From the NCBI GenBank assembly GCA_024233875.1, contig JACKPB010000009.1, positions 85,191 through 149,190 on the forward strand: a DNA stretch of 64,000 nucleotides, read 5' to 3'. The position numbers and the translations under genes are program-made. Below, in pieces: positions 140-50,694 of this stretch. The notes under the pieces are model-generated. The model did no database searches. It had not been told where the DNA came from and saw nothing but the letters and a program-made list of their open reading frames with translations. Source of the DNA: Leptospiraceae bacterium (lineage in GTDB: Bacteria > Spirochaetota > Leptospiria > Leptospirales > Leptospiraceae). Numbering within the stretch: position 1 is the first letter of the stretch; every line of letters begins with the position of its first letter.

Positions 140-783
140 TGATCAATCCATTTAAAATTATATTCTTTCTTTTCAGTATTACATTACTGTCTAATTGTTC
201 TAGCTTTTTAAAAAAAGACTATCCCGAAAAAAAGTACTATCTTCTGGATACAGATCGCTCTAACCTTAAAAAAGGGAAATTGAAGTTCCCGCTATTAAAA
301 ATCACCAAGATACGGATTTCTCCATATTTTGAAGGGAAGAACTTTGTCTACAAACAGGGTAATCTAAACTATGAAACTGATTTTTACAATGAATTCCTCG
401 TCTACCCCTCTAATAACATAAATGAAGTTGTGAACAAATGGATCATTGAGTCCGGATTGTCAGTTCCCTGGTCTGTCTATGATGAAGATGTTTACCAATT
501 GCAAATCAATGTAGAATCACTTCATGGAGATTTTTCTGATGGCTCTAAGCCCAGGGCTATTCTGGAACTAAACTTTTTACTTCAAAAAGCAGGGAGTAAA
601 AAAATCCTATATACAAAAAAATTCCATAAAGATGAGCCAATTACAGAAATCAATGCCGATAACCTCGTTACAGCCTGGAACAAAGGTTTGACTGAGATCA
701 TGATCGAAATGGAATCCGATCTAAGAAAAATCCAACTACCCAAGAAAGATGATCCGGAAGAAGAGAAAGAAACTGAAAAATAA
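139..783 (+). CDS. Lipoprotein, likely an ABC-type transport auxiliary lipoprotein (PF03886-like) of the kind that follows mce operons
   Basis: N-terminal signal peptide with lipobox LLSNC. About 210 aa. Its start is coupled to the upstream stop by a TAATG overlap. Acidic Glu-rich C-terminus. Confidence 0.5.
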   Translation: MINPFKIIFFLFSITLLSNCSSFLKKDYPEKKYYLLDTDRSNLKKGKLKFPLLKITKIRISPYFEGKNFVYKQGNLNYETDFYNEFLVYPSNNINEVVNKWIIESGLSVPWSVYDEDVYQLQINVESLHGDFSDGSKPRAILELNFLLQKAGSKKILYTKKFHKDEPITEINADNLVTAWNKGLTEIMIEMESDLRKIQLPKKDDPEEEKETEK

Positions 784-787
784 TTAG

Positions 788-950
788 TAACTCACATTAC
801 GCAAAGAAGCGAAATGTGAGGTTGCAGGGAGCCTGCCGGCAGCTTGGGCTATCGCCCAAACCCATATTTTTATTGATCTATTAGCAAAAAATGATTTTGA
901 TTTTAAACTAAAAAAAATTAGAAAAATAAAATACTGCGTAAGATGAGTTA
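788..950. repeat. Family A MITE-like repeat, copy A1 (diverged)
   Basis: Begins taactcacattacgca and ends tgcgtaagatgagtta, which are inverted ends. The interior, cagggagcctgccggcagcttgggctatcgcccaaaccc, is homologous to copies at 2457 and 27108. Confidence 0.7.
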
Positions 951-1019
951 GTAAGAAATAAAATAACTACTCTCCTGATCAGATTTATTACTTTCTGAAA
1001 AAAATAGATAGGTTATTGT

Positions 1020-2450
1020 ATGGCGTATTTATTCTATTTTTTACTTATTTTCGTTTCAAACTATTTCTTATACGGAGATGAGTATCATAGCATTCAAGGC
1101 TTGTATGGCAACAAAGCATTAGGAATGGGTGGAGCCTATACAGCCATTTCGGATGAACCTTCCGGTATGTATTACAATCCTGCGGGTATGTCTTTTTCTC
1201 AAAGCAGTAACATCACAGTAAATGCAACAACTTACCAATATGATAGAAAAACTTATCATAATGTATTTGGACCTGCTCAAAATTATACTAGAGAATCAAA
1301 AAATTTAGGTCCTAATTTCGTAGGAATTTTGCAGAAACTAAACAATTTGACTGTTGGTTTTTCATTAATCAATATTCAATCCAAAAAATACTCTCTATCC
1401 GGAGAGATCAACTTACCCTACTTTTCTCCCGAAGTTGATCGTTACAAGGCAGATTCTCTCGAAAATACAATGAATTTTCTGGCCGGTCCGGGTATCTCAT
1501 ATCTTTTAGGATCAAAAATCTCCGTAGGGATGAGTTTATTTTACTCTTATGACAATGAAGACAATATTTTCACAGGAAGTATTGAGAAAAAAGATGGCAC
1601 TATTTCCGCTCATACAATGAAAGTTAAGCGACTGACAAAAGGAGTTCTTCCTGTTTTGGGGATTCAGTATCTCGTTACAGAAAAACTATCTCTGGGTGTA
1701 TCACTTAAAAAAATGTTTACCGTGATACATAACAAAAGATATTCTAGCAATACTCTTAATGCGATTGCATCAGGCAATAGTTTTATCAGAAATAAAGAGT
1801 TCATAGAATCTTCCGATAGTTTTTTTGTAGCTTATGATGAACCAATGATCATCGCGGTGAAATCCCCCAATCTGGGAACAATCGCAGAACCTACTGAGGT
1901 TAGGTTGGGACTGGCTTATTTCGCCTCCCATCGATTTTTGGTTTCAGGGGACGTCATTTATACCGGGAGCTATCACTATTCAAAAAGAAATTATGGTGTC
2001 ATCTTTCCCGAAAAAGCAGTGATTTCTGCTGACAATACTATTCTGAACAATATAAATAGAAAAGAGACATATAATTTTGCTTTAGGAGCAGAATACTTTT
2101 TAACAGAATCAATTGCTCTCCGATTAGGAGTTTTTAGCAATTATTCAAATACTAAATACTTATCGAAGCAAAAACTTTATGTAGAAAGGTTTTTTTCAAA
2201 TCCTTTTTCACCTCTACCCATCCCTATCACACCTAACTACTATCATATATTTCCATCCAAGAGACTGGAGCATGTGACTCAATTTGGATACACTCTCGGA
2301 TTGAGTTATGAAACATCAAAAGCATTTTATAGTTTTACAATCCTGGCAGAAGATGGAAGAGGTTTGGGGTTTGCCTTCAATAGTTCTGTTCCTCAAAAGA
2401 TATCCTATTTAAATTTTAATTTTTATCTCTCAGCCGGAACTAATTATTAG
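1020..2450 (+). CDS. FadL/OmpP1/TodX-like outer-membrane beta-barrel protein
   Basis: Hydrophobic N-terminus. Motif GNKALGMGGAYTAISDEPSGMYYNPAGM near the N-terminus. 476 aa with amphipathic beta-strand pattern. A paralog lies at 39746..41221. Confidence 0.55.
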   Translation: MAYLFYFLLIFVSNYFLYGDEYHSIQGLYGNKALGMGGAYTAISDEPSGMYYNPAGMSFSQSSNITVNATTYQYDRKTYHNVFGPAQNYTRESKNLGPNFVGILQKLNNLTVGFSLINIQSKKYSLSGEINLPYFSPEVDRYKADSLENTMNFLAGPGISYLLGSKISVGMSLFYSYDNEDNIFTGSIEKKDGTISAHTMKVKRLTKGVLPVLGIQYLVTEKLSLGVSLKKMFTVIHNKRYSSNTLNAIASGNSFIRNKEFIESSDSFFVAYDEPMIIAVKSPNLGTIAEPTEVRLGLAYFASHRFLVSGDVIYTGSYHYSKRNYGVIFPEKAVISADNTILNNINRKETYNFALGAEYFLTESIALRLGVFSNYSNTKYLSKQKLYVERFFSNPFSPLPIPITPNYYHIFPSKRLEHVTQFGYTLGLSYETSKAFYSFTILAEDGRGLGFAFNSSVPQKISYLNFNFYLSAGTNY

Positions 2451-2456
2451 TTTTAC

Positions 2457-2640
2457 TGACTCACCTTACGCACGCACTTCACTTATGCGAAGGTGAATGA
2501 CAGGGAAGCCTGTCGGCGCTTGGGGACTTCATCCCCAAACCCCTTTAAATATTGAATTATTAGAAATATCTAATGATTCACAATCTTTATTTAATTCCAT
2601 AGTATCCCTTTAAAAAATTCATGTTGCGTAAGGTGAGTTA
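2457..2640. repeat. Family A MITE-like repeat, copy A2
   Basis: Perfect 16-bp terminal inverted repeats: tgactcaccttacgca at the left and tgcgtaaggtgagtta at the right. Internal hairpins include cttcac..gtgaag, gacagg..cctgtc and gggga..tcccc. About 90% identical to the copy at 27108..27292. Confidence 0.8.
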
Positions 2641-3068
2641 TTGAATTAAATATCTCTAATTGAAATCGTTCTCAATGCCATATTTGTAAATTGTAACCTA
2701 TTTAGAAAGAACAGTTAGAAAATATGAAATCTGATTAAAACTCACCTAACACATTCTTTTCTTATTTCTGAACATGATATACCAGTTCTCATAAATAATT
2801 GCGTTTTTCTTAGTAAGGTATGTAGCGATTTTATAGCTTATTTCTTTATGAATGAGCTAACCTTTTGAAGATGACTATAATCTTTTTATAAAAAATCATT
2901 TTTCCACAATAAATCAATAAAAATAGAGCTTTGGTGACGATGAGTTTTCGATTTGCTGAATAACTTTTTTCATTTTTTTCACCTATCACCCGAAGAGTGT
3001 AATGTGAATTAGAAAAGTAAATTTTATTATTCTTGCACAAAATACATATTAGTTTATCATAATGAATT

Positions 3069-4082
3069 ATGAGTTCTCTGAACAATGAAAATCCGGAAAA
3101 ACCGGTTCTGGTAGCCATAGTTGCTAATACAATCATCGCCATATCCAAAGGAATCGGGTATCTGTTTAGCGGATCTTCGGCACTTCTTTCCGAAACGATC
3201 CATTCTATTGCTGATGTCATGAATCAAGCCTTACTTCTCATCGGAATACGAAGAGGAGCCCGCCCGGAGAATGAGATTTACAATTATGGATACTCTCAGG
3301 AAAGATTCTTTTGGAATCTTTTATCCGCAGTAGGAATATTTGTTCTCGGCTGTGGGGTCACACTCTATCACGGTGTTCATGAACTTTTAGAGCATAGTGA
3401 CGTCAAACCCGCCGGAGTGGAACAATACGTCATAGAAGCAATTTTGTTGATCTCTCTATTAGCCGAAGGATATTCTTTTTCTGTAGCTGTCAAAGAAATC
3501 AAAAAATCTGCTGATGAGAGGAAAAAGAAATTTTTTACATATCTCAATGAGTCTACAGATCCTTCAATTAGTGCCATTTTTTGGGAAGATCTGGCTGCGA
3601 TTCTGGGGATTTTACTGGCCTTCACCGGTATCGTGATGACCAACCTCACTATGAATAAAACTTTTGATTCCATTGCCAGTATCTTGATAGCCTTATTGAT
3701 GGGTTGGATAGCATATCACCTGGCTATCGAAAACAAGAAATTTCTGGTAGATAGATCGATTCCTGATTTTGAAATGAATCTTATAAAAGAAATTTTGAAT
3801 ACTAATCCATATTTAAAAGGATATTCTGAAATCAAATCAATTGTTCTCGGTCCAACAAGATTGAAGTTTACAGCTAAATTGGATTTTCAAACCGAGAAAC
3901 TCTTCAAAACAACATCCTTCTCCAAAAAATTTGAAGAGAATCCTCAACTAACTTTGAATTTGAACGATGCCAAAATTTTGAATGATGAATTGTTTGAAGT
4001 TCAAAAAAGAATAATAAATGAAATCAAATCAGAAATGATGAATAAAATTCCTAATTTAATGCATATCGAATTAACTATCTAA
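3069..4082 (+). CDS. Cation diffusion facilitator (CDF) family metal efflux transporter
   Basis: Six predicted transmembrane segments. Motifs HSIADVMNQALLLIG and ARPENEIYNYGYSQ are typical of CzcD/FieF-type CDF proteins. A C-terminal cytoplasmic domain is present. Confidence 0.8.
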   Translation: MSSLNNENPEKPVLVAIVANTIIAISKGIGYLFSGSSALLSETIHSIADVMNQALLLIGIRRGARPENEIYNYGYSQERFFWNLLSAVGIFVLGCGVTLYHGVHELLEHSDVKPAGVEQYVIEAILLISLLAEGYSFSVAVKEIKKSADERKKKFFTYLNESTDPSISAIFWEDLAAILGILLAFTGIVMTNLTMNKTFDSIASILIALLMGWIAYHLAIENKKFLVDRSIPDFEMNLIKEILNTNPYLKGYSEIKSIVLGPTRLKFTAKLDFQTEKLFKTTSFSKKFEENPQLTLNLNDAKILNDELFEVQKRIINEIKSEMMNKIPNLMHIELTI

Positions 4083-25143: not shown

Positions 25144-25836
25144 TTATTTTGTATCGTCTGTATCAATTGGGTCATCAATTTCTGTTCCTGAATTTACAAG
25201 TTTGAAAGTAACCCTTCTATTTTTGGGTGACTCTGCCTCTACATCAGGTATAGGCATTGAAGAACCAGCACCTTTTGTTAGCATTCTATCTTCCGGAAAC
25301 CCAAGTTTCACGAGAGAATTTTTTACAGATTCTGCTCTCTTTTGTGAATAGAAGATATTTCCTAACTTAGATCCCTCTTTTTCTTCAGGTCCGGTAGCAT
25401 CAGCATGTCCTGTGATCTCTAGATTGATGTTCTCAGGAAGTTTAGAAAGCGCGTCTTTTATCAATGAACCGGAGACTTTTACCCATTTTTCAAAATCTTT
25501 TCTATTTGGAATTTCCCATTTTTTGTATTCAAAGCCTTCAATGGTATTTCCGTCAGGGTATCGAACGTCACGCAGTTTTTCGTTTAATTCCTGAATCATG
25601 GCATCATTTGCAAATTTTAATTTATCGATAGTTCCAACCGGTTCCGGATCCTGTCCTTCGGTTGTTCCTTCATCGCCGATCTCCCGGGTCTTTGCCTGAT
25701 CTTTTTTATCGTCTGTTTTTTCAGCAGGTTTATCTTCCGGTTTGGGAGTATCCTGCTTGTTTCGTGAGGAACAATCTACAAAAAACAATAGAAGTGCACT
25801 CAAGAGTACAATTTGGAATTTAGAAATTGAATTCAT
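25144..25836 (-). CDS. OmpA-family lipoprotein (peptidoglycan-binding)
   Basis: Lipobox FFVDC. Low-complexity Lys/Asp linker. C-terminal OmpA_C region ITGHADATGPEE...NRRVTF. Confidence 0.8.
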   Translation of the reverse strand: MNSISKFQIVLLSALLLFFVDCSSRNKQDTPKPEDKPAEKTDDKKDQAKTREIGDEGTTEGQDPEPVGTIDKLKFANDAMIQELNEKLRDVRYPDGNTIEGFEYKKWEIPNRKDFEKWVKVSGSLIKDALSKLPENINLEITGHADATGPEEKEGSKLGNIFYSQKRAESVKNSLVKLGFPEDRMLTKGAGSSMPIPDVEAESPKNRRVTFKLVNSGTEIDDPIDTDDTK

Positions 25837-26868: not shown

Positions 26869-27107
26869 GTATAGTCTTATCTGATGGATGGGTTGAAATC
26901 TCCAAACTTTGAAAAATAACAGAACAGTTTCGATTCAAAAGTTCAAAAAAATGGACATATTTTTCCCTGGCAGTGGTTCAACCGGGCACACAAACCAGGG
27001 ACTCATCGTCTCCAAACACTTATTTTTCTTGATCTCTAAGTAAAATATGATTTTCCATAAAAAAATTAAATGTTCAGAAAATTAAAAAAATTGCGTAAAG
27101 TGATTTA

Positions 27108-27292
27108 ATAACTCACCTTACGCACGCACTTCACTTGTGCGAAGGTGAATGACAGGGAAGCCTGTCAGCGACTTGGGGACTTCGTCCCCAAATCCCTTTA
27201 AATATTGAATCATTAGAAAAATCTAATGATTCAATATTTATTTAGTTCCATAGTATCCCTTTAAAAAATTCATGTTGCGTATGGTGAGTTAA
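27108..27292. repeat. Family A MITE-like repeat, copy A3
   Basis: taactcaccttacgcacgcacttcacttgtgcgaaggtgaatgacagggaagcctgtcagcgacttggggacttcgtcccc...tgcgtatggtgagtta is about 90% identical to 2457..2640. An extra partial inverted end, tgcgtaaagtga, abuts the left terminus at 27091. Confidence 0.8.
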
Positions 27293-27326
27293 TAAATTTC
27301 TAAACAAAAGTTTTTAAGTAATTTGG

Positions 27327-28472
27327 TTAATTGTTAAGAATATTCAAATTTTTTAGTTTTGAAATCAGCAAATCCGTAACTTCGCTATAACAGGAACCAT
27401 CCAGATGAAACCCATCTTCAAATTTATTGCAGTGCATTGGAATTTCTAAATAATTTAAGTAATTCATTTTAGTTCTTACCTTTAGAGACCGGAATTTCTT
27501 TTCTATATAAGAATCATCAATTTCTGCTTTAAGCAATTTTTTCTTCAATTGATCGGAAATGGGTAAGGTTATGAATAGGACTCTGTCTGAATTTTCCCCC
27601 GAATAATCTATAAATTTTTTTAGGAATTTGATTTGAGAGTCAGATTCTCTATAGTGTCTACCTATGTACCTCTGAAATTTCAATTCAGCATCGAGACTCA
27701 ATTCTGAATCTGTTTTGGCTTCCTGGCTCAGGTTCACAAGTCCACCACGATTGGTGCGATTGATGTCCATAAGTAAATTTTGATAGTTTTCTCTAAGATA
27801 TTTCTTTTTCTTTTTTTGGACCTCTCCCTTCCAAACTACATCTATGAAGGAATTGTTCTCCGAATATGCTTTTACCGCAAATGGATATCGAAACACATAA
27901 AAATTTCTTCTAAAGAAGTAATTTAAAAATTCTGTTCCGGAAAATCCTTTGCCCTCTGATTTCCAGGGATCGTACTGTCCTTCCCACCAGAGATCTGAAT
28001 GTTTGAAATAAAAGGGAATGTCATAGGAATACATATCAGGATATTGATGACCGGACAGACTCAAAAGAAAGGGATCCACTTCAAGAACTAGAGTAGTGAT
28101 AGGAATGTTCTGATTTTGGAATAAACTCAAAAGATAATAGAAATAGGAAATACCGGGGAAAGGAACACAAAAATTATATACCACAAGTCTATCGTCCAGT
28201 TCTTCGATCTTCCTGTTTTCAATCGAGGCAGCTCTGGAAGATCCGAAGATCACTACCAATTTCTTTTCTCCGGATTTAATTTTGTCGAGATCAGGAGATT
28301 TCAGTAGATCATCCAAAAGACTCAAACGTGATTCATAAACTACAGGTTCAATTCGATTCCAGGAGATAAAATTCTCCTGTATCCATGGAAGAGTGAATAC
28401 TTTATCCAGGAGAAAGCAACTGAGCAGAAGTAATACCGGGAAAAACAGAAATGAGTAGTTCTTTTTAAGCAT
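27327..28472 (-). CDS. DUF1574-like Leptospira-type protein, possibly SGNH-fold
   Basis: N-terminal hydrophobic anchor. About 381 aa. VVIFGSSRAAS and DGFHLDGSC resemble SGNH blocks I and V. Last gene of a minus-strand operon with the three small lipoproteins. Confidence 0.45.
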   Translation of the reverse strand: MLKKNYSFLFFPVLLLLSCFLLDKVFTLPWIQENFISWNRIEPVVYESRLSLLDDLLKSPDLDKIKSGEKKLVVIFGSSRAASIENRKIEELDDRLVVYNFCVPFPGISYFYYLLSLFQNQNIPITTLVLEVDPFLLSLSGHQYPDMYSYDIPFYFKHSDLWWEGQYDPWKSEGKGFSGTEFLNYFFRRNFYVFRYPFAVKAYSENNSFIDVVWKGEVQKKKKKYLRENYQNLLMDINRTNRGGLVNLSQEAKTDSELSLDAELKFQRYIGRHYRESDSQIKFLKKFIDYSGENSDRVLFITLPISDQLKKKLLKAEIDDSYIEKKFRSLKVRTKMNYLNYLEIPMHCNKFEDGFHLDGSCYSEVTDLLISKLKNLNILNN

Positions 28473-28520
28473 GGAGCTTAGGATAGTCAGTAGAAACTGA
28501 CTATCCTTTGAAATGTTTTT

Positions 28521-28871
28521 TCAAAATAGAGGGATGGGCCAGTCTATAAATGTTTCTCGTTTCCTAAGATTGCAGTTGAAGCCTCCAATATCAGCTGTTG
28601 CAAAATTGATGATCATAGCTGAATTGGCACAATTGTCTACATCCTCTTTTTCATAATACGCAGATTCGTCTATATTCGCAAGTGTAGGAGCAAGAATAGC
28701 TGTAATAGAAACGGATCCGCCTCCTGCCGCTCCAATGATTGCAGCTGTTAAGATTTGATCTTTAGCTTCTGTTCCTTTTACAGTACTGGGATACGTGAGA
28801 CCAACCATATTCATTACCTGACAGTTAGAGATCAAAAAGAGAAACATGGAGAGAGTAATAATTTTTTTCAT
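28521..28871 (-). CDS. Small secreted lipoprotein, paralog 1 of a tandem triplet
   Basis: Signal peptide plus lipobox LISNC. Conserved VGLTYPS.V.G.EAKD...ADIGGF.C.L...I.WPIPLF. A Shine-Dalgarno sequence AAGGAA lies upstream. Confidence 0.7.
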   Translation of the reverse strand: MKKIITLSMFLFLISNCQVMNMVGLTYPSTVKGTEAKDQILTAAIIGAAGGGSVSITAILAPTLANIDESAYYEKEDVDNCANSAMIINFATADIGGFNCNLRKRETFIDWPIPLF

Positions 28872-28887
28872 ATTTTTTCCTTATAAA

Positions 28888-29241
28888 TTAAAATAATTGA
28901 ATCGGCCAATTCACAAATTTTTTGTGTTTTGTCAAATGGCACTGAAACCCACCGATATCCGCACTTAAAGAATTAATGAGCATGGCATCCTGAGCACAGG
29001 TTTCTACATCTGATTTATCATAAAACGCATCTTCTTCTATAAATGCCAACCGATCAGCAAAAAAACCTAATAGACCACCACTCGAACATTCCACGCAAGC
29101 AACTGCACCTATAAGTGCCTTAGTGATGATCATATCTTTAGCTTCTTTTCCGCTAACAGATTCGGGGTAAGTCAATCCAACAGAATCAAAGACAACACAA
29201 TGATTGAAAACAAACAATAGGACTAAGATAAATTTTTTCAT
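28888..29241 (-). CDS. Small secreted lipoprotein, paralog 2 of a tandem triplet
   Basis: Signal peptide with Cys (FNHC). Same conserved blocks and Cys pair as paralog 1. Shine-Dalgarno AGGAG is 6 nt upstream. Confidence 0.7.
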   Translation of the reverse strand: MKKFILVLLFVFNHCVVFDSVGLTYPESVSGKEAKDMIITKALIGAVACVECSSGGLLGFFADRLAFIEEDAFYDKSDVETCAQDAMLINSLSADIGGFQCHLTKHKKFVNWPIQLF

Positions 29242-29251
29242 AATATTCTCC

Positions 29252-29617
29252 TCAGATGATGGGAATCGGCCAGTTAATCAACTTCTTATGTTCTTTGAGG
29301 TTGCATGTATAGCCCCCAATATCTGCTCCGGTGAGATTGATCACGAGAGCTTCCTGAGCACATTTTTCAACTTCGCTTCGATCATAATAACTCTCAGGAT
29401 TGATTCCTGCCAATTTATCAGCGATCAATGAGAATGCGGGAGTGTTATTGCCTGAATACCCACCTTCAGTCGCCCCCACTACTGCATTGGATATAATCAT
29501 CATCTTTGCTTCATCCCCTTTAATCGATTCCGGACTTGAAAATCCTATTGTATCCATCACAATACAATTCGATAAAAGCATTACTATCAATATTGAATAA
29601 ACCAACCTTATCAACAT
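29252..29617 (-). CDS. Small secreted lipoprotein, paralog 3 of a tandem triplet
   Basis: Signal peptide LLSNC. The conserved blocks end NWPIPII. Shine-Dalgarno GGGAGAG is 7 nt upstream. Confidence 0.7.
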   Translation of the reverse strand: MLIRLVYSILIVMLLSNCIVMDTIGFSSPESIKGDEAKMMIISNAVVGATEGGYSGNNTPAFSLIADKLAGINPESYYDRSEVEKCAQEALVINLTGADIGGYTCNLKEHKKLINWPIPII

Positions 29618-29722
29618 AAAGAATCTCTCCCTGTCTATAAATCAAAATTCTGGTTACTTGGAATTGAGAAAATATTTTTTTTCTAAGTTGAAAAACTAAT
29701 CATAAAATTATCAATAAGATTT

Positions 29723-30052
29723 ATGGAAACAGAAAAATTTCGATTAGTTTATATCACATGCAAAGACAATGAAGAGGCAAAAAAGATAGGGAAGACTCTA
29801 GTGGAATCAAAACTCTGTGCATGTGTTAATATTATCAATCAAATGCAGTCTTTGTATATCTGGGAAGGAAAACTAATAGAAGACAACGAAAGTATTTTAA
29901 TAGGGAAAACTACACTCCCTAACCTAGACTCCATTCAAACAAAAATTAAAGAAATTCATTCCTATACCAATCCCTGCATTATCAGTTTACCTATTCTTGA
30001 GGGTAGCAGGGAATACTTAGAATGGATAGAAGCGAGTGTTAAAAGAGACTGA
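29723..30052 (+). CDS. cutA: Divalent-cation tolerance protein CutA
   Basis: ~109 aa. CutA1 fold motifs YITCKD...KLCACVNII...YIWEGK...E...YLEWI. Confidence 0.85.
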   Translation: METEKFRLVYITCKDNEEAKKIGKTLVESKLCACVNIINQMQSLYIWEGKLIEDNESILIGKTTLPNLDSIQTKIKEIHSYTNPCIISLPILEGSREYLEWIEASVKRD

Positions 30053-30272: not shown

Positions 30273-30404
30273 TCAGCTTTTTTTCTTTGCAGCAGTTTTT
30301 TTCTTAGCAGCAGTTTTCTTTTTTGCAACTGTCTTTTTCTTAGTTACAGCTTTTTTCTTTGCAACAGTTTTCTTTTTTGCAGCAGCTTTCTTTTTAGCAA
30401 CCAT
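30273..30404 (-). CDS. 43-aa lysine-rich repeat microprotein (histone-H1-tail-like), not in the ORF track
   Basis: Manual translation of the minus strand gives MVAKKKAAAKKKTVAKKKAVTKKKTVAKKKTAAKKKTAAKKKS*. A Shine-Dalgarno GGAGGAGG sits 8 nt before the ATG. A rho-independent terminator lies just downstream. The plus-strand ORF 30193..30459 (FFAAVFF...) is its low-complexity shadow. Confidence 0.55.
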   Translation of the reverse strand: MVAKKKAAAKKKTVAKKKAVTKKKTVAKKKTAAKKKTAAKKKS

Positions 30405-31092: not shown

Positions 31093-32883
31093 GTGAGTTC
31101 AATTGTATCCAATAAACTTAAAAATTTTTTCTATCTCTCTGCCTTTAGCTTACTTTCAATTCTGTTTTACTACTTTAGTGCTCAATTCTATCTACTTTAT
31201 GATCAAAATTGTATCAATAAAGACTTCTTAACCTGGGATCCCGAACTGAGATATATACTTACATTAAAGATGATGAATTTTATAAGAGAAGGAAAAATTC
31301 ATTCTTACATTTTTCAATTCCTGGATTCACCTCACTGGCCTTCACTGAGAAATGTTCTGGAGAGTATCGTCTTTACCTTTACAGGCCATTCACCGGTAGT
31401 ACTAACGCTCATCACATTCTTCTTCTATCTCTTATTACCAATCGGAGCTCTCTTTCTATTCTGGAAAGAAAAACAGAAGTCTATACTCTCAATTCTGCTT
31501 TTAACCCTATATTTATTGGCTCTTTTGCAAGCAGACTCTTTACTACTCTATAGCTTTACGGGAATGCTGGAAGTTCAGGGAGCGTTTCTATTTATATTTA
31601 CAACTTACTATCTTTCCAAAGTTTACTCCGAACCTGAATTTATAAAAAAAGATTCAAACAAATGGTTGGTCTTCGGTTCTGTTTTTTTACTTTATCAAAC
31701 TAAATATCCTTACGGTTATCTTCTGGTTCTATTCCTATTTCTCTTTGAAGTGATTTTTTTTCCAAAACAGTCTTTCGGATTTGCTCTTGAATACTTTTCC
31801 TCGTTAAAAAATATTTATAAAAACCCGAGATGGCTCATTGCTATTCTAGCAATCCTCTCACTCTTCCTTCCATCTCACCTTTTGAAAGGAAAGACAGCTT
31901 CTTATCTTAGATATCTCTTCATGTTAAGCCTGGTGATTGATTTTTTATTTTTCTTTTATAAAAGATCTTCAAAGCAAAGTACCGAACGAATCGAATTCTT
32001 ATTTAAGTATGCTATCCTTCCTATCGTGATATGGATGTTCATACATCCGGATAGATTCGGAAGTTACTCAGGTCAGATCACCCATGTAGAAAGTCAGGGA
32101 TTCAATCCCGGTCAGGAGATCATAAAAGATAAAGATTATTATTTTTTATTCTTTACTGAGTTTGTTTGGAATTCTTTTTCTCAGTTTCATCTCGGCTATG
32201 CAGTTCTGGTTTTCAATCTCATCAGTTTTTTTTCCGGAATGTTGATTTATCTCAGAAGAAAATCCATCTCATACAGTTTCTTTGCCTCAACTGTTTGTCT
32301 TTTTACATTTTTGGAACTGAGTCTCTTCACTACAAACCGATTGGCAAGACATACTTATCATCTTTATCCCACAATGATTCTCTCTTTTGTATTTTTTATA
32401 TTAGAAAATTATAATGCACATAAGAAATCACTTACAGCTTTGAGTTTGATTTCTGTTCTTCTATTCTCTTATCCTTTCCTGATGAAGCCCGATTACTATA
32501 TCAGCAGAACTGAAGTTTGCTATACCGGTTATGATAGAAAAGACTACACAACTCCCTTATGGATGGAGAGCATTGCAAAAGAAAAACTCAATCGCAATAC
32601 AATTCTTTTCAATGAATTGAGCCCACTTCATGTAAATAAAGCAGATACAGAGTATCTTCTTTCTAAGATTTCTTATGATCGCAAAATCAGATTAACTATC
32701 GATCCGAAAAGAAAAATCGAAGACCTAGAAAAGTTTGATGAGATATGGATTCCTTCCAATCATTGCAATCTACCGAAGAATCTCGAAAAATTTCGAAGTC
32801 TCTTAATAAATCAGGGATTTGATTTGAATTTTGAAAAAATTCAATCCTCAGAGGGATGTATCCTTATCAATCAAAAGAAGTAG
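31093..32883 (+). CDS. Polytopic integral membrane protein, possibly a GT-C-type glycosyltransferase
   Basis: At least 10 hydrophobic helices over ~450 aa, followed by a ~140-aa soluble C-terminal domain. No catalytic motif recognised. Preceded by a ~630-bp AT-rich non-coding region. Confidence 0.45.
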   Translation: MSSIVSNKLKNFFYLSAFSLLSILFYYFSAQFYLLYDQNCINKDFLTWDPELRYILTLKMMNFIREGKIHSYIFQFLDSPHWPSLRNVLESIVFTFTGHSPVVLTLITFFFYLLLPIGALFLFWKEKQKSILSILLLTLYLLALLQADSLLLYSFTGMLEVQGAFLFIFTTYYLSKVYSEPEFIKKDSNKWLVFGSVFLLYQTKYPYGYLLVLFLFLFEVIFFPKQSFGFALEYFSSLKNIYKNPRWLIAILAILSLFLPSHLLKGKTASYLRYLFMLSLVIDFLFFFYKRSSKQSTERIEFLFKYAILPIVIWMFIHPDRFGSYSGQITHVESQGFNPGQEIIKDKDYYFLFFTEFVWNSFSQFHLGYAVLVFNLISFFSGMLIYLRRKSISYSFFASTVCLFTFLELSLFTTNRLARHTYHLYPTMILSFVFFILENYNAHKKSLTALSLISVLLFSYPFLMKPDYYISRTEVCYTGYDRKDYTTPLWMESIAKEKLNRNTILFNELSPLHVNKADTEYLLSKISYDRKIRLTIDPKRKIEDLEKFDEIWIPSNHCNLPKNLEKFRSLLINQGFDLNFEKIQSSEGCILINQKK

Positions 32884-50600: not shown

Positions 50601-50681
50601 TATAGATCTATTAGTAAAATATGATTTTGTGTAAGAAAATTAAAATCTTCTGAAGAATAAAAAAATGCGTAAAGTGAGTTA
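50594..50681. repeat. Family A partial copy (right half plus right terminal repeat only)
   Basis: gatctattagtaaaatatgattttg...aaaaaatgcgtaaagtgagtta is homologous to the right half of A1 (about 876..950). No left terminus is present. Confidence 0.55.
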
Positions 50682-50694
50682 ATAATTTACAATA

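Follow-up and report, generated by a model that had tools for sequence, protein, structure and literature searches.

Many lineage-specific lipoproteins of unassigned role dominate both the cell envelope of the Leptospiraceae and the lists of vaccine candidates. Outer-membrane lipoproteins can act as regulators of periplasmic enzymes, as LpoA/LpoB do for penicillin-binding proteins and NlpD/ActS for amidases, and SGNH O-acyltransferases of the AlgI/AlgJ and PatA/PatB type usually have an MBOAT partner. The DUF1574 family (PF07611) of Leptospira is placed among the SGNH hydrolases by Knizewski et al. (2008). It is assigned to SGNH clan CL0264, which it shares with AlgX, DltD and PatB, without established activity or structure, and the characterised families of this clan are mostly carbohydrate O-acyl esterases or transferases (PMC9487903). 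Here we analyse a 64,000-nucleotide stretch of DNA from a Leptospiraceae bacterium (contig JACKPB010000009.1, positions 85,191 to 149,190; the window), in which three small lipoprotein genes of family TIGR04452, termed lipA, lipB and lipC, stand next to a DUF1574 gene. Three paralogs of ancient divergence, the A-, B- and C-types, form a compact tricistronic array at this locus, and the array is stable in the species and in its sister species. We propose, with a probability of roughly 0.45, that the three proteins are non-redundant, lipid-anchored, disulfide-braced helical accessory partners of the membrane-anchored DUF1574 SGNH esterase/acyltransferase; this mechanism is inferred.

The three genes lie consecutively on the minus strand: lipA at 29252..29617 (121 amino acids (aa), A-type), lipB at 28888..29241 (117 aa, B-type) and lipC at 28521..28871 (116 aa, C-type). 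They are separated by 10 bp (lipA-lipB) and 16 bp (lipB-lipC), and a 48-bp spacer follows between lipC and the DUF1574 gene. The positions and the two short spacers given in the original prediction, which was made by a model from the letters and a list of open reading frames (ORFs), agree exactly with the ORF list and the sequence. Each gene also has its own Shine-Dalgarno-like site, as predicted: the purine-rich AGGGAGAG is located 7 nt before the ATG of lipA, GAGGAG precedes lipB and overlaps the lipA stop codon, and AAGGA precedes lipC, all read directly from the sequence. In full-length alignment the proteins share 39-50% pairwise identity (BLASTP E 1e-29 to 1e-39), rather than the 45-55% first estimated, and their paralogy exceeds chance by far. 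No further copy of the genes was found in the 64-kb window by tblastn.

All three proteins belong to the curated NCBIfam family TIGR04452 "Lepto_Lipo_YY_C", with scores of 68.6 (lipA), 66.0 (lipB) and 80.4 bits (lipC) against a curated cut-off of 28 bits and with near-whole coverage of the 116-position model. Proteins identical to those of the window (P0001 for lipA) carry the precomputed Pfam assignment PF27904 'Lepto_Lipo_YY_C', and in GenBank they are already named 'TIGR04452 family lipoprotein [Leptospiraceae bacterium]' (lipC is MCB1142545.1, and the DUF1574 protein is MCB1142546.1). Because of these scores and existing labels, the earlier statement that the small proteins fall into no recognised family is wrong; a Pfam-A copy older than PF27904 gave no significant match to any of the three. 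lipA, lipB and lipC add new members to a family that is known and curated but functionally uncharacterised. Among 1.84 billion representative proteins, a profile hidden Markov model (HMM) search recovered 84 clusters, counted at 50% identity, with E <= 1e-3, of which 22 reached E <= 1e-10. The cluster members found in this exhaustive search are nearly all 100-160 aa long, and all named homologs, distant ones included, are from Leptospira, Leptospiraceae or a Spirochaetota metagenome-assembled genome (MAG). On the evidence of these searches the family is small and restricted to the Leptospiraceae. Two long surface proteins, P0083 (1033 aa) and P0105 (1447 aa), matched the family profile at E values of about 1e-4 to 1e-6 and were judged spurious. 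They are repeat proteins of the type IX secretion system type, with 5-6 repeats of TYYVTQTxGxC(T/A)S, which mimic the YY..C motif of the family through convergence of a short motif.

A signal peptide followed by Cys was predicted for the array and is present in all three putative lipoproteins, with the lipoboxes LLSNC (lipA), VFNHC (lipB) and LISNC (lipC), each after a hydrophobic h-region. Over 110 family sequences the lipobox Cys is retained in 105, and the residue that precedes it is mostly N, Q, S or G. Sec export, lipidation at the conserved Cys and periplasm-facing anchoring in the membrane are all predicted on this basis. The YY..C motif reads SYYDRSEVEKC, AFYDKSDVETC and AYYEKEDVDNC in the three window proteins and is followed downstream by GG[FY]xC. 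All three share the blocks G-x-E-A-K, [YF]Y-x-[KR]-x-[DE]-V-[DE]-x-C and ADIGG[FY]-x-C, and their tails contain WPI. Among the same 110 sequences, G33 is invariant (110/110), Y73 is conserved in 109 and C81 in 108 of the 109 aligned, and every sequence that aligns at position 100 has Cys there. The predicted Cys pair with its ADIGG[FY]xC block is thus found in each protein. Of the predicted VGLTYP...EAKD block, the GxEAK part is common to all three proteins, whereas VGLTYP is absent from lipA, which reads IGFSSP. The C-terminal tails, which had been called identical, are merely similar (INWPIPII, VNWPIQLF and IDWPIPLF), and a WP(I/V)P tail occurs in just ~31 of the 110 family sequences.

The mature proteins have calculated masses of 10.6-11.2 kDa, are acidic (pI 4.3-4.7) and contain no conserved hydrophobic segment of transmembrane grade; mature lipA (~11.1 kDa, pI 4.7) has two conserved Cys in addition to the lipid-bearing one. 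An AlphaFold2 model of lipC, built from a 32-sequence alignment, has a pLDDT of 67 and a pTM of 0.52. Past the signal helix, the model contains three helices (residues 33-51, 56-64 and 75-91) and two short strands, and its C-terminal tail is of low confidence; the mature domain of ~100 aa is accordingly predicted to be mostly α-helical. The two invariant Cys, C81 and C100 in lipC numbering, are probably joined by a disulfide, which would fasten the IGGFxC loop to helix 3. A sequence search of the PDB with the 32-sequence profile gave no match (best E 0.41). Two structural candidates were rejected. The secondary structure of the model suggested an internal β-α duplication, for which hhalign of the two halves returned a probability of 0.2%. 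A glycine zipper or re-entrant hairpin for the Ala/Gly-rich helix was dropped because hydrophobicity varies among the paralogs (KD19 maxima of 0.67-1.73), and no match to a glycine-zipper family was obtained either.

In the loop that follows helix 1, lipB contains an additional Cys pair, CVEC. The same B-type pair is found in the sister-species ortholog (CGGSNC; locus L024, 294-653) and in L020_g2, a family gene of a further lineage (CRVDC; locus L020, 6001-6351), and the other types are without it. This extra pair and the invariant one could belong to metal or redox lipoproteins of the periplasm, which would handle thiols/disulfides or cations in connection with the divergent cutA gene (29723..30052, plus strand; Pfam CutA1, 120.6 bits). 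In three lineages a divergent cutA1 gene is found upstream of TIGR04452 genes, namely in the window, in L001 (200-523) and in L014 (4516-4848)/L023 (4600-4914), with a PBP_like_2 gene intervening in two of them. However, the variable spacing of the extra pair (CxxC, CxxxC, CxxxxC) argues for a disulfide loop over a metal or redox site, and the pair fits better as a second small disulfide loop. Clusters of His, Met or Cys are absent, and the copies in the genus Leptospira are not near cutA, so that we consider a metal or redox function very unlikely. The linkage to cutA1 may reflect plain synteny, or the genes may be regulated from a common region.

To place the paralogs, neighbour-joining trees of the mature region were calculated with 200 bootstrap replicates. 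A clade containing the window paralogs only has 0% support. Instead, lipB groups with its sister-species ortholog P0005 and lipC with its sister-species ortholog P0004, both at 100%. The clade of lipB, P0005 and L020_g2 is found in 78.5% of the replicates; the other gene of that lineage, L020_g1, groups with the A-type in 7%, and L020_g1 and L020_g2 appear as sisters in 2.5%. lipC groups weakly (~49%) with the single-copy orthologs of the genus Leptospira. The sister species, represented by short contigs at ~68% nucleotide identity, has the same A-B-C order; its A-type gene is partial, its B-type gene is complete with 68% aa identity, and its C-type protein is 72% identical. Past its C-type gene there is a hairpin-bearing spacer and then an ORF starting MIEHQKKIIFLPIFLLIICFLTDK, which matches the N-terminus of DUF1574. 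The lack of a window-only clade and the A-B-C order of the sister species indicate that the paralogs are ancient, and the proposal of an old duplication of true paralogs stands.

Comparison of the window with the sister species gave a dN of 0.21-0.28 with saturated dS, and a dN/dS of ~0.12 where it could be computed (B-type). The array is under purifying selection, which has kept the anciently duplicated copies. Within the species, the architecture of lipA-lipB-lipC plus DUF1574 was recovered on ~18 metagenome contigs from different samples with constant copy number, and conspecific contigs are 99.8-100% identical over 3.1 kb (0-4 substitutions and one 1-bp indel). These data bear directly on the original prediction of a diversifying and expanding family of the surface-antigen or effector/immunity kind. 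A surface-antigen family that expands and diversifies under host or phage/predator pressure would be in line with copy numbers of 1, 2 or 3 across lineages, with at least two independent tandem duplications (one in the L008/L021 clade, 100% bootstrap) and with the low identity of the paralogs. In contrast, strains are nearly identical and invariant in copy number, the A-B-C order is retained in the sister species, dN/dS is low, the divergence is ancient, and the source is an environmental Leptospiraceae MAG. The surface-antigen explanation is largely refuted and can be given hardly any weight. Expansion is likewise not borne out, as copy number does not change between strains and the gene of the genus Leptospira is single-copy and syntenic. 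Judged by the refuting condition set out with the original prediction, a conserved unit free of variation across related genomes, the locus comes nearer to an ordinary, conserved group of lipoprotein genes.

Downstream of the array, the DUF1574 gene (27327..28472, minus strand) encodes 381 aa and matches PF07611 with 147.4 bits against a gathering threshold of 29.1, over profile positions 5-342 of 342. The prediction of a DUF1574-like gene 48 bp downstream on the same strand is therefore correct, and its SGNH fold is predicted from the family's placement in the SGNH clan in the literature. A single-sequence AlphaFold2 model is unusable (pLDDT of 44). The protein contains the motifs GSSR, with a Ser resembling that of block I, and FEDGFHL, with a DxxH resembling that of block V, which match the corresponding SGNH blocks and suggest a catalytic role. 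The DUF1574 neighbour in L020 (PF07611, 127 bits) aligns with it over the full length (29% identity, E 3e-27), and G77-S78-S79-R80 and D353-x-x-H356 are invariant between the two. The N-terminus FLFFPVLLLLSCFLL is the most hydrophobic segment of the protein by hydropathy, and the protein is therefore predicted to be membrane-anchored or exported, probably by means of this segment. The window protein is a divergent subtype of PF07611. PDB sequence searches with it returned nothing; among DUF1574 homologs, a word-indexed search returned the protein itself alone, and a metagenome scan with a two-sequence alignment returned nothing.

Arrays of periplasmic immunity lipoproteins adjoin lipase effectors in some systems. 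By analogy, the DUF1574 protein could be an esterase toxin acting in the periplasm and the lipoproteins its cognate or orphan immunity proteins, since tandem small lipoproteins with a predicted periplasmic location adjoin a hydrolase-fold gene here and their copy number varies between lineages. However, the DUF1574 protein has its own N-terminal anchor or signal and resembles a resident enzyme, the cluster contains no secretion-system or mobile-element genes, and PADLOC gave no matches. Strains are invariant, and syntenic single-copy family members occur without any hydrolase. An effector/immunity module is accordingly scarcely credible.

The copy number and neighbourhood of family genes were compared by an HMM scan of 37 fetched loci, among them those with L numbers, and by gene tables. 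In the genus Leptospira, one copy occupies a conserved position in the order Hpt-LpxA-epimerase-VanY (divergent)-[lipo]-...-RecG. Single copies are also found in L014/L023 (CutA-PBP (divergent)-[lipo]-HAMP/SpoIIE), in L001 (CutA (divergent)-[lipo]), in L030 (arylesterase (divergent)-[lipo]-SnoaL) and, as paralogs in unrelated contexts, in L. fainei and L. yasudae. Two tandem copies are located between PGA_cap and a flagellin gene in L008 and L021/22, which form a separate clade with 100% bootstrap, and two tandem copies are also present in L034-L037, which were left out of the tree. L020 has two copies and then DUF1574, with ASD and PNP upstream and a hypothetical gene and an MCP gene downstream. 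Three copies are confined to the window species and its sister among the 37 loci. Tandem duplication has occurred at least twice, and the resulting arrays are stable. As a separate observation on L020, phage-like genes (Phage_Mu_F, Septknot and DUF2283; 200-3793) lie a few kb upstream of its array, with housekeeping genes (ASD and PNP_UDP_1) in between.

The DUF1574 gene follows the array in three lineages, and the lipoprotein-DUF1574 linkage seen in the window thus recurs in two further ones, the sister species and L020. The flanking genes of the window and L020 are wholly different; in the window the DUF1574 gene is surrounded by the three lipoprotein genes, CutA and a convergent pseudouridine synthase. 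The lipoproteins of the window and L020 are ~35-46% identical. Because the module has been kept despite this divergence and the rearranged flanks, functional coupling of the lipoproteins and DUF1574 is plausible. Envelope-themed neighbours are also found elsewhere, with VanY and LpxA in the genus Leptospira and PGA_cap in the two-copy clade. We propose that the lipoproteins would assist or regulate enzymes that remodel the envelope. Their partner in this clade would be the membrane-anchored SGNH esterase/O-acyltransferase of the DUF1574 family, with an envelope glycan (lipopolysaccharide (LPS), peptidoglycan or exopolysaccharide) as its substrate, and the A, B and C types would act jointly, probably within a hetero-oligomer or as adaptors that differ by type.

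The lipoproteins may instead be stand-alone structural or housekeeping components of the envelope, for instance small scaffold or stress proteins in the periplasm or anchored to the outer membrane, with paralogs that were subfunctionalised independently of the enzyme and an adjacency to DUF1574 that is inherited synteny. Family genes mostly occur singly, in highly variable contexts and without DUF1574, a stem-loop or terminator lies between the array and the enzyme gene, and both the purifying selection and the core-like synteny in the genus Leptospira fit such a role. Set against this, retention of the module between the window and L020, with all flanks differing and with lipoproteins and enzymes as divergent as given above, would be unusual for neutral synteny. 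We regard the stand-alone explanation as the main rival, possible though somewhat less likely than the partnership.

Several observations weigh against the proposed partnership with DUF1574. Most family members have no DUF1574 gene nearby (genus Leptospira, L014/L023, L030, L. fainei, L. yasudae and L008/L021/L034-37), which implies that the family does not need DUF1574. The linkage may derive from a single ancestral arrangement, and the A-type placement of L020_g1 has the low bootstrap value noted above. No MBOAT gene adjoins the DUF1574 gene or was found among the larger window ORFs scanned. In addition, the hairpin in the spacer, together with a U-tract terminator in L020, may imply that DUF1574 is transcribed separately from the lipoprotein genes.

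This hairpin, identified by an inverted-repeat search, lies at 28480..28507 on the minus strand in the lipC-DUF1574 spacer and has the sequence AGGAUAGUCAGU-uucu-ACUGACUAUCCU, with a perfect 12-bp stem and a 4-nt loop. The 76-nt fold of the spacer has an energy of -25.3 kcal/mol (z = -7.7), and there is no U-tract downstream of the window hairpin. The sister species (L025) has a stem of ~14 bp with a different sequence in the same spacer, and the 186-bp spacer before DUF1574 in L020 contains two hairpins, one of which is followed by a U-run and is terminator-like. The hairpin of the window may act as an attenuator, stabilise the 3' end of the upstream mRNA or mark a processing site; under the proposed partnership it would set a high ratio of lipoprotein to enzyme expression. 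Because a stem-loop precedes DUF1574 in all three lineages, co-transcription of the array and DUF1574 is uncertain and simple co-transcription is doubtful. The operon that was predicted to include DUF1574 is therefore only partly upheld: the common strand, the 10-, 16- and 48-bp spacers and the conserved adjacency speak for it, and the stable spacer hairpin of all three lineages speaks against it.

The array promoter is presumably located in the 105-bp divergent region between lipA and cutA (29618..29722). A promoter scan, whose yield was not above the shuffled expectation, gave no site there. At the opposite end of the cluster, a structured repeat of ~200-230 nt (27085..27315), resembling a miniature inverted-repeat transposable element (MITE), lies directly downstream of the DUF1574 gene in a 460-bp gap. 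Besides terminal inverted repeats of 14 bp (ACTCACCTTACGCA / TGCGTAAGGTGAGT), this dispersed repeat contains several GC-rich hairpins and an internal 19-bp perfect palindrome at 27199-27240, and its 251-nt fold has an energy of -91.5 kcal/mol (z = -11.7). A second copy at 2452-2647, 92% identical, is located right behind a gene for a FadL-like outer-membrane protein, and a fragment is present at about 50652-50688. The palindrome probably acts as a bidirectional terminator for the cluster and the convergent rluD-like gene. Rfam gave no match in the window at the gathering threshold, and the structured gap yielded sub-threshold noise alone.

Three further genes of the surroundings were recorded. 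On the minus strand, 30273-30404 contains an ORF for a lysine-rich 43-aa peptide (MVAKKKAAAKKKTVAKKKAVTKKKTVAKKKTAAKKKTAAKKKS), made of an 18-nt tandem repeat in 6.9 copies and also called as a gene on metagenome contigs; it may be a basic peptide of the histone-H1 kind. At 31093-32883, the plus strand encodes a polytopic membrane protein of 596 aa, which has no Pfam or NCBIfam match and is conserved beside cutA and the array on all contigs of the organism. An OmpA-domain lipoprotein at 25144-25836 on the minus strand scores 192 bits with NF047653, below the 300-bit equivalog cut-off, and is thus a divergent Loa22-like protein, comparable to Loa22 of Leptospira.

Literature searches for TIGR04452, Q8EZA9 and PF27904/Lepto_Lipo_YY_C returned nothing beyond one transcriptome table (PMC13066512); MY479_RS16220/Q8EZA9 is the VanY-adjacent ortholog of L. 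interrogans, a species with at least two family genes. In that study two family genes of L. interrogans Hardjo (KR40) are listed as transcribed, and both decrease in an ovine dialysis-chamber model (PMC13066512). The supplements give a log2 fold change of -1.54 and a base mean of 56 for MY479_RS16220, which lies three genes from lpxA, and a log2 fold change of -1.69 and a base mean of 7.8 for MY479_RS14800, which has no L. borgpetersenii ortholog. In these data the syntenic family gene shifts together with lpxA.

TIGR04452/PF27904 is thus a small family that is restricted to the Leptospiraceae, is under purifying selection and has no structural relatives detected by PDB sequence searches, and one of its clades keeps two or three non-redundant types linked to a DUF1574 SGNH enzyme. 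With the antigenic-variation and immunity explanations set aside, an accessory role in the acyl modification of an envelope polymer is the first concrete, testable lead for both uncharacterised families. Its practical value is modest, and it serves as a source of hypotheses for the envelope biology of Leptospira rather than as a new kind of system. In an unlikely stronger version of the partnership, A, B and C would form a hetero-oligomeric, disulfide-braced complex of unseen fold that binds and gates the MBOAT-less, membrane-anchored DUF1574 protein, and the single-copy orthologs of pathogenic Leptospira would be adaptors for other envelope enzymes, such as the neighbouring VanY carboxypeptidase. 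If true, this would be a new lipoprotein-dependent, Leptospiraceae-specific class of envelope-glycan esterase/O-acyltransferase system.

Neither the three-type array nor the association of TIGR04452 with DUF1574 is described in the searchable literature. Compared with LpoA/LpoB and NlpD/ActS, the window proteins share the concept of small lipoproteins controlling envelope enzymes only, without homology. Another analogy, in working principle only, is provided by the accessory proteins of SGNH/MBOAT O-acylation systems (AlgF with AlgI/AlgJ/AlgX, WssG, and DltX with DltB/DltD), which are likewise small exported proteins encoded beside a membrane-anchored SGNH enzyme for envelope polymers. In contrast to these systems, the window has three lipoproteins and no adjacent MBOAT gene, and its proteins have no Pfam, NCBIfam or PDB match to AlgF, WssG or DltX. 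The DUF1574 gene is a clear member of the SGNH family PF07611 of Leptospira and keeps the Ser and the Asp-x-x-His, although it represents a divergent subtype. The lipoproteins correspond to the TIGR04452/PF27904 family in length class, signal peptide and lipobox Cys, GxEAK block, YY motif, Cys pair and restriction to the Leptospiraceae. In the genus Leptospira the family is represented by a single gene between VanY and RecG, whereas in the window three types are combined in a tight array beside DUF1574.

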